Shown here piece by piece: positions 54,949 through 54,978 of a stretch of 64,000 nt of DNA (positions are counted from its first letter, which is position 1; each line of letters begins with the position of its first letter). Source of the stretch: Escherichia phage MirsaeidiM_Esher1. Location of the stretch: sequence record PQ438048.1; one strand, written 5' to 3'. The translations under genes were made by a program, and so were the position numbers. The notes beneath the pieces were generated by a model. It saw nothing but the letters and a program-made list of their open reading frames with translations, had not been told where the DNA came from and ran no database searches.

Positions 54949-54978
54949 ATCCTAACATATGAAGGATACGTTTGTCAA
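54949..54978 (-). promoter_or_regulatory. promoter-like element TTGACA-N18-TAGGAT overlapped by inverted repeat
   Basis: Minus-strand TTGACA (plus 54973-54978), TAGGAT (plus 54949-54954); 7-bp inverted repeat GTATCCT/AGGATAC at 54947-54969. Confidence 0.45.

Follow-up and report, generated by a model that had tools for sequence, protein, structure and literature searches.

A family of probable sigma-70 promoters in Escherichia phage MirsaeidiM_Esher1 and a covarying hairpin over one of them

Sigma-70 promoters with an extended -10 element (TGn) serve as early promoters in coliphages such as T4 and T5, and the tRNA cluster of phage T4 includes stable RNAs of unknown function, species 1 and 2 (rnaC and rnaD). 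For rV5, a relative of the phage considered here, 33 sigma-70 promoters spread over the genome have been predicted, 11 of them with an extended -10 element (PMC3606486), while the T4-type phages RB49/phi1, PST and nt-1 carry terminator/promoter cassettes known as promoter-early stem-loops (PeSLs; PMC2839356, PMC4122927). Here we describe a family of sites with sigma-70 promoter architecture in a stretch of 64,000 nucleotides from Escherichia phage MirsaeidiM_Esher1 (PQ438048.1), hereafter the window, together with a hairpin that overlaps one of them, P54978, at the edge of the tRNA cluster. The segment that holds this cluster (window 52400-55100) is 98-99% identical to published genomes of Phapecoctavirus, the phAPEC8-like E. 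coli myoviruses of ~150 kb that belong to the subfamily Stephanstirmvirinae.

As predicted promoters, the sites of the window fit the sigma-70 extended -10 class without anything unusual, and they do not overturn current understanding. They share its consensus -35 hexamer, a spacer of 17-18 nt, the TG at -15/-14, invariant T-12, A-11 and T-7 and an A-rich tract, but inside the -10 hexamer they consistently depart from the consensus (TAGGAT, TAGATT, TAAGAT, TACCCT), and half of the spacers measure 18 nt. As in rV5, they occur throughout the genome and are not limited to an early region. The GenBank records of the relatives that we inspected contain no promoter annotation in this region; 'repeat_region' features in phage anhysbys, considered as a possible promoter annotation, turned out to be automated repeat calls. 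By analogy, the closest known kind of element for the window's modules would be the PeSL cassettes, in which a small, repeated intergenic module likewise brings together a stable stem-loop, a strong sigma-70-like promoter and, ahead of its -35 hexamer, an AT-rich tract. At P52498, P36927 and P6297, where canonical terminator hairpins stand directly upstream of the promoter, the order of stem-loop, AT-rich tract and promoter is exactly that of a PeSL. The window belongs to a different phage subfamily, however, its stems are not of the G(n)/C(n) type, and at P54978 and the tRNA-Gly promoters the stem-loop, which lacks a U-tract on the sense strand, lies over part of the promoter itself (spacer and -10, or -35).

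Promoter architecture, placement and constraint

At each of five sites proposed in a preliminary description of this DNA, and at no fewer than seven more, a -35 hexamer close to TTGACA and a -10 hexamer of the form TAnnnT lie 17-18 nt apart, within the 16-18 nt expected of a sigma-70 promoter (Table 1). The five are found where they had been placed, save the one given as 11411; that site is real, but the position is a point 10 nt upstream of its -35 hexamer, which begins at 11421. The consensus of the family reads A-rich tract, TTGACW, 17-18 nt, TGn and TAnnnT. For 12 promoters, the fraction of A over the preceding 12 nt is 0.44, compared with 0.30 for the window. One 12-mer, AACTATTGACAA, has exactly three copies in the window (54983-54972, 54396-54385 and 53268-53257). 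These had been described as sharing an extended core and as standing immediately upstream of tRNA genes; the shared core is there in all three, but only two of them directly precede a tRNA, the copy at P54978 being followed by a structured RNA of ~195 nt, here called ncRNA-A. With the start taken as 7 nt after the -10 hexamer, the predicted starts at these three promoters precede the 5' ends of mature RNAs by 2-5 nt: ~3 nt before ncRNA-A (which is followed by tRNA-Met and tRNA-Arg) at P54978, 2 nt before tRNA-Ser(UGA) at P54391 and 5 nt before tRNA-Gly (53222) at P53263.

Neither a generic sigma-70 scan of the window, at 9 of 12 consensus positions (56 sites against 52.0 +/- 7.7 expected), nor a count of TTGACA alone (58 against 58.75 expected) revealed an excess. 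The combination TTGACA-N17/18-TAnnnT occurs 11 times where 2.5 +/- 1.6 occurrences are expected, and its extended -10 version, TTGACW-N14/15-TGnTAnnnT, occurs 10 times where 0.41 +/- 0.66 are expected. Non-coding sequence, which makes up 8% of the window, accommodates 8-9 of the 11 sites of the former kind and 6-7 of the 10 of the latter, and nearly all sites of either kind are oriented like the local genes (10 of the 11 of the former). Since the family serves protein genes as well, the portal gene included, an 'early' timing of these promoters is not established.

Two groups of relatives were available for comparison in the public phage collection: a tight cluster of genomes that are at least 99% identical, and a second lineage, ~80% identical at the P54978 locus, comprising phiWec179, phiWec181, phiWec188 and PsgM04F. 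Across 10 orthologous promoter pairs between the window and the phiWec179 lineage, 58 of 60 positions of the -35 hexamer are identical, as are 19 of 20 positions of the TG and all 40 at positions 1, 2, 5 and 6 of the -10 hexamer; position 3 is shared by 5 of 10 pairs and position 4 by 8 of 10. The remaining spacer positions agree at 102 of 155 (66%; Fisher p = 2.6e-10), and yet spacer length is held at 17-18 nt despite insertions and deletions. This footprint on TTGAC, TG and T1/A2/A5/T6, with free spacers, is the signature of sigma-70 recognition. It leaves no room for a 'TAGGAT-like' -10 as a class of its own, as had been suggested, for hexamer positions 3 and 4 vary freely among paralogues as well as between orthologues, and only T1, A2, A5, T6 and the upstream TG are constrained.

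Individual promoters follow the same pattern. In the phiWec179 lineage P54978 retains its -35 hexamer and TG unchanged, with TAAGAT as the -10 hexamer and a spacer of 17 nt, and the upstream limit of BLAST homology to this 80% lineage (query position 74, window 54987) coincides exactly with that of the promoter. Both hexamers are identical at P54391 (where 12 of 18 spacer positions agree), P53263 and P56024, and both are conserved at P3269 alongside 7 spacer changes. The orthologue of P52498 reads TTGACA-17-TACGAT with a diverged spacer, that of P11421 reads TTGACT-18-TAGGAT and keeps the 18-nt spacing despite insertions and deletions, and for P6297 no orthologue was found in phiWec179. The same promoter design stands before tRNA-Ser, tRNA-Gly and tRNA-Arg in the Justusliebigvirus JohannJBalmer and in Citrobacter phage Tr1. 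The idea of a family of sigma-70-type phage promoters is thus borne out: it is enriched, intergenic and co-oriented with genes, bears its footprint at the contact positions, recurs in other groups of Stephanstirmvirinae and places its predicted starts near mature RNA 5' ends.

These sequence features make it very likely that the host E. coli RNA polymerase, with sigma-70, uses the sites as promoters of the strong type that combines a consensus -35 with an extended -10 element; that they actually initiate, when and with what strength, is what we infer. Three points weigh against this assignment. The literature on transcript 5'-end mapping in Stephanstirmvirinae yielded in-silico predictions only; a spacer of 18 nt exceeds the optimal length by one nucleotide; and in Tr1 the promoter that follows the homologue of orf82, the 82-amino-acid open reading frame (ORF) upstream of P54978, has a -10 hexamer, TATATT, that abuts the first base of tRNA-Met (L024 3809-3845). 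By positional equivalence this promoter is taken as the P54978 homologue, and a standard start would lie inside the acceptor stem, which is hard to reconcile with a tRNA made from it.

A different explanation would be that the matches are unused as promoters and that the units are transcribed from elsewhere; the sigma-70-like sequences would then have been kept for some other purpose, for instance because long transcripts fold there. This fits the lack of experimental start sites and the overlap of some copies with RNA structure, as at P53263, for whose spacer an RNAalifold model predicts pairing with the 5' end of the spacer RNA between tRNA-Thr and tRNA-Gly. We regard it as very improbable, however, because constraint on the contact positions, together with free spacers at a fixed spacing, reflects sigma-70 and not base pairing, and because co-oriented intergenic copies occur at protein genes as well. 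Less remote, although still rather unlikely, is a possibility drawn by analogy and compatible with promoter function: the AACTATTGACAA cassettes may chiefly be homology patches for recombination that shuffle modules of tRNAs and small RNAs, with a promoter activity that is real but secondary. The identical 12-mer does occur three times within 1.8 kb, the modules between promoters differ among relatives (in ncRNA-A, tRNA-Asn, additional ORFs, a homing endonuclease of JohannJBalmer and a duplication of 45 nt, for example), and PeSLs, in which a sigma-70-like promoter with an AT-rich upstream region is joined to a stem-loop, have been described as mediating insertions and deletions (PMC2839356, PMC4122927). 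Against this, the shared identity of 12-16 nt is below the ~50 bp mentioned for the T4 recombination system, and conservation follows the sigma-70 contacts rather than marking a uniformly conserved site.

The hairpin over P54978

A perfect inverted repeat, GTATCCT-N9-AGGATAC at 54947-54969, had been noted over P54978 and put forward as a candidate operator. The repeat is present and longer than described, with perfect arms of 10 bp, AACGTATCCT/AGGATACGTT, at 54944-54972 (54972-54963 and 54953-54944) around a 9-nt loop, and the imperfect continuation of these arms takes in the -35 hexamer (Table 1). The dyad symmetry that an operator would call for is therefore there, overlapping the promoter from -35 to about +5. 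Folded as RNA, the 61-nt region of P54978 reaches -18.5 kcal/mol (z = -4.7), and none of the other ten promoters of the window folds comparably, with z-scores mostly of about -1.2 to +1 and -2.0 at P6297.

In the phiWec179 lineage a different sequence, AAGCGTGTCTTA-N6-TAAGATACGCTT, adopts the same fold with a 12-bp stem (-18.6 kcal/mol, z = -4.1). Relative to the window, this lineage has 3 of the 10 arm positions substituted, with compensation, and in the stem there are two compensatory pairs (A-T to G-C and C-G to T-A), one G.U (G.T in the DNA) and one pair gained; the C-G to T-A change involves the change of the -10 hexamer from TAGGAT to TAAGAT. In the positional analogue from Tr1 the stem, of 9 bp and capped by a UUCG loop, is unrelated in sequence and lies between the -35 and -10 hexamers (z = -3.3). 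Hairpins also recur at the tRNA-Gly promoters of three groups, where stems of 7-8 bp with unrelated sequences hold the -35 hexamer at their apex: the hairpin at P53263 in the window (Table 1), AGCCTCTT-GACA-AAGGGGCT in JohannJBalmer and AGTCCTTG-ACAA-CAAGGACT in Tr1. The covariation at P54978 was read from two diverged lineages and the Tr1 analogue; within the genus the hairpin contains only a single-nucleotide polymorphism in the loop, which is uninformative. Searches for further diverged orthologues of P54978 returned little that was new: a scan of IMG/VR by protein gave one contig of the phiWec179 lineage, a scan by 17-mer gave that same contig and ten chance matches, a profile search gave only loci of the Justusliebigvirus kind, and one metagenome scan gave two contigs, one for each known lineage.

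The case for an operator is weak, since the arms covary rather than keep their sequence, the dyad is single-copy and no DNA-binding protein was recognised nearby. The pattern argues instead, from the sequence comparison, for selection on pairing in a hairpin and not on a recognition sequence; with dyad symmetry maintained through compensatory change, a hairpin fits at least as well as an operator. Under the operator alternative a dimeric phage or host DNA-binding protein would bind the dyad and repress P54978, for example to time the synthesis of stable RNAs. The perfect dyad is indeed centred on the promoter and covers the -35, the -10 and the start, symmetric changes of the half-sites would also be expected from a co-evolving dimeric regulator, and just upstream lies the gene of a small Zn ribbon-like protein that has two CxxC motifs. 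We nevertheless think it unlikely, as the arm sequence is not conserved between the 80%-identical lineages and is unrelated in Tr1, a search of the 64-kb window revealed neither a second dyad nor enrichment of the half-site, and the five neighbouring ORFs have no recognisable DNA-binding domain, with PHROGs matches of unknown function only and nothing significant in Pfam. Moreover, the half-site centres are 19 bp apart, presumably not an integral number of helical turns, and the lone unpaired change is a G.T, which is harmless to a hairpin but breaks the symmetry of a protein site.

Nor does the hairpin resemble an intrinsic terminator on the sense strand, where its tail, UCAUCAAGUG, has no U-tract, and the site is absent from the calls of the terminator scan. 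Read in the other direction, where the A-tract becomes a U-tract, it could be an intrinsic terminator or insulator against antisense transcription on the + strand, shielding the promoter and the ORFs upstream. The antisense strand forms a continuous 16-bp helix with two G.U pairs (-20.1 kcal/mol, z = -5.3) followed by UAGUUAUUU, and the tRNA-Gly hairpins with the -35 at their apex are followed on that strand by UUUUAUU, UUUGAUAUUU or AUUUUAAAA. The tail UAGUUAUUU is only moderately U-rich, however, and there is neither a + strand gene nor a convincing + strand promoter to supply the transcription. A-tracts also occur at promoters that lack a hairpin (P56024, P52498, P11421), as would fit a role as UP element, and in several relatives the antisense stems contain A.C mismatches and fold worse than the sense strand. 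We therefore hold this alternative to be quite unlikely.

Tentatively, and at somewhat less than an even chance, we read the hairpin as a structure that forms in RNA when transcripts from P56024 and P55535 read through. There it would mark where the mRNA of three small ORFs ends and the stable-RNA cluster begins, and it could serve as a protective 3'-end hairpin, a processing site or an attenuator, and the compact intergenic space would have forced it onto the next promoter. P54978 would then be a compressed form of the PeSL-like terminator/promoter cassettes at P52498, P36927 and P6297. Several observations speak against such a role. The missing U-tract on the sense strand means that the hairpin is no canonical terminator. 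Raw fold energies favour the sense strand in most relatives, but after correction for composition the two strands are alike, with z = -5.3 for the antisense and -4.5 for the sense strand in the window. The covariation, finally, comprises few events, in two diverged lineages and one positional analogue.

A more specific mechanism, which we consider improbable, is that the promoter-embedded hairpins are a regulatory device particular to the stable-RNA clusters of these phages, lying across the spacer and -10 at P54978 and across the -35 at the tRNA-Gly promoters, and covarying in three to four lineages. As duplex DNA the element would act as a sigma-70 promoter, whereas its extruded or read-through form would switch between autonomous initiation and the processing or attenuation of upstream transcripts, perhaps as a supercoiling-sensitive cruciform or as an RNase target; if so, P54978 would control a previously undescribed phage RNA of 195 nt. 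Beside the RNA structure, the operator and the antisense terminator, the remaining probability falls to a hairpin that has no function beyond chance and history.

RNAs and transcription units of the tRNA cluster

The tRNA cluster appears not to be one operon, as at least three strong predicted promoters lie inside it, a few nucleotides before mature RNA 5' ends. The promoters of the family would head short transcription units, three of which lie within the cluster. The intrinsic terminator at 52540-52522 would end the cluster, and P52498 would restart transcription for the next gene. Together with the remaining sites, this amounts to a concrete, testable transcription map for phages often considered for therapy, namely Phapecoctavirus and other Stephanstirmvirinae, and the promoters may be of practical use as compact, probably strong sigma-70 parts. 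Less ordinary are the structured non-tRNA RNAs that the promoters appear to drive, and the covarying hairpin over P54978.

A consensus fold of ncRNA-A, made by RNAalifold from 4 sequences, contains 70 pairs, 10 of which show compensatory double changes. Its covariance model has matches only in the two Phapecoctavirus lineages, and nothing was found with it in JohannJBalmer or Tr1. Rfam, searched at gathering and at permissive thresholds, gave no match for the structured spacers, ncRNA-A among them. The arrangement recalls that of rnaC and rnaD in T4, in which structured non-tRNA RNAs are interspersed and co-transcribed with tRNA genes; this is a likeness of organisation only, and we detected no relationship between the T4 stable RNAs and ncRNA-A in sequence or in Rfam. 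Two tRNAs of the cluster, tRNA-Tyr(GTA) and tRNA-Ser(TGA), were missed by ARAGORN and came from other evidence (Table 1).

Other spacers between tRNAs on the - strand also have a structured look (54395-54585, 53223-53538, 54045-54170, 53055-53145 and 52545-52650). In the spacer 54585-54395 a long closing helix, GAACATTTTA.CATGAAT / ATTCATGGTAAAATGTT, can be made out by eye. In the RNAalifold model of the tRNA-Thr/tRNA-Gly spacer, ACAACAT just after tRNA-Thr pairs with ATGT(T/A)GT inside the spacer of P53263, which places that promoter inside the folded spacer RNA. Elsewhere in the cluster, a tandem duplication of a 45-nt unit (2.2 copies, 98% match) occupies 53759-53856 within an apparent tRNA-like gene, GGACTTGTAGAG...GAGTCCCA; phiWec179 has the unit only once, and the gene of the window is probably a disrupted or pseudo tRNA.

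Gene map and further observations

The gene map in Table 1 was derived from annotated relatives and ORF calling. The long block on the - strand contains the three small ORFs, the tRNA cluster (54739-52656), a gene of 98 amino acids, lysis genes, the large terminase, the portal and head and tail genes. The homologues of orf82 in JohannJBalmer and Tr1 are 44% and 41% identical, respectively, to the product of the window's gene. Between this ORF and P55535 lies a small ORF (55243-55494, - strand) whose product has two CxxC motifs (CRAC...CSIC) in a Zn ribbon-like arrangement and matches PHROGs of unknown function only.

Table 1. Positions of promoters, RNAs, hairpins and gene blocks in the window
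Feature	Position	Strand	Details
P54978	54978..54949	-	TTGACA-18-TAGGAT; -35 54978-54973, TG 54957-54956 (-15/-14), -10 54954-54949; predicted start A54942
P54391	54391..54362	-	TTGACA-18-TAGATT, TG present; predicted start A54355
P53263	53263..53234	-	TTGACA-18-TATAGT, without in-register TG; predicted start G53227
P52498	52498..52470	-	TTGACT-17-TAAGAT, TG present; upstream of 98-amino-acid gene (ATG 52448, Shine-Dalgarno AGGAGG)
P11421	11421..11450	+	TTGACA-18-TAGGAT, TG present; -10 ends 8 nt before ATG 11459
P56024	56024..55995	-	TTGACT-18-TACCCT, TG; first leftward promoter of divergent control region
P55535	55535..55507	-	TTGACT-17-TAAACT, TG; -35 overlaps stop codon of 61-amino-acid ORF
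P49064	49064..49036	-	TTGACA-17-TATTAT, no in-register TG; upstream of portal gene
P47372	47372..47344	-	CTATTGACAA..., TTGACA-17-TAGACT, no in-register TG
P36927	36927..36898	-	TTGACA-18-TACAAT, TG; preceded by UUCG-loop terminator 36957-36942
P6297	6297..6325	+	TTGACA-17-TATACT, no in-register TG; preceded by UUCG-loop terminator 6265-6280
P3269 (possible member)	3269..3297	+	TTGACA-17-TATAGT, no in-register TG; just inside predicted 5' end of an ORF
A-rich tract TAAATAACTA	54979..54988	-	between stop codon of 82-amino-acid ORF (54988-54986) and -35 of P54978; resembles a proximal UP element
Inverted repeat/hairpin at P54978	54938..54978	.	arms 54978-54963 and 54953-54938, 14/16 bp with two mismatches; includes -35 hexamer
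Hairpin at P53263	53249..53267	.	fold; ACTATTG-ACAAC-CAATAGT, 7 bp, -35 of P53263 at apex
ncRNA-A	54939-54742	-	~195-nt structured non-tRNA RNA; closed by ~22-bp helix; ends 2 nt before tRNA-Met (54739)
tRNA-Ser(UGA)	54353-54263	-	sub-threshold Rfam tRNA-clan match, 37.4 bits; identical to tRNAscan-SE tRNA-Ser-TGA in phage ASO2A
tRNA-Tyr (GTA)	53958-54042	-	recovered by Rfam, 39 bits
Intrinsic terminator	52540-52522	-	AGCCTCC-TTATT-GGAGGCT + TTTTT; closes tRNA unit 23 nt before -35 of P52498 (terminator-promoter cassette)
+ strand genes	1-12737	+	gene map
Long - strand block	55717 down to 12801	-	gene map
Divergent non-coding region	55718-56199	.	gene map
DNA-metabolism genes	56200-64000	+	gene map

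Two candidates that lie within genes, at 31437 and 23389, are conserved. The former (31408-31437, - strand) reads TTGACT-18-TACAAT with TG inside a tail gene of 958 amino acids and may be an internal promoter; its TTGACTGGGG and CAATACTGTG are kept although the surrounding coding region is only ~66% identical to phiWec179. A match on the + strand at 44179 was discarded, for on the opposite strand it reads as a Shine-Dalgarno sequence with its start codon. In the tail-fibre region, a 921-amino-acid ORF (25054-27819, - strand) has no counterpart at this position in phage ABPW7, which is otherwise 98.8% identical, and displaces collinearity with that phage by ~2.8 kb.

P11421 has no separate Shine-Dalgarno sequence, so that its mRNA may be leaderless or nearly so, unless the AGGA of the promoter doubles as a Shine-Dalgarno for read-through transcripts; the spacing between its -10 hexamer and the ATG is the same in phiWec179. 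The window, phiWec179 and JohannJBalmer all have the same -10 hexamer, TACCCT, at the first leftward promoter (55995-56000; L005 2491-2496; L023 47-52), and the transcribed sequence downstream of it, CGAGCGCAG, is likewise conserved. The retention of so poor a -10 suggests selection for this particular non-consensus hexamer. In the same divergent control region, five closely spaced GTACT repeats (GTACTCTGTACTCAAGTACTGTACTCCGTACTAG) occupy 55863-55945 beside an AT-rich block with overlapping palindromes and 17-nt tandem repeats, and this region could be regulator-binding or origin-like.

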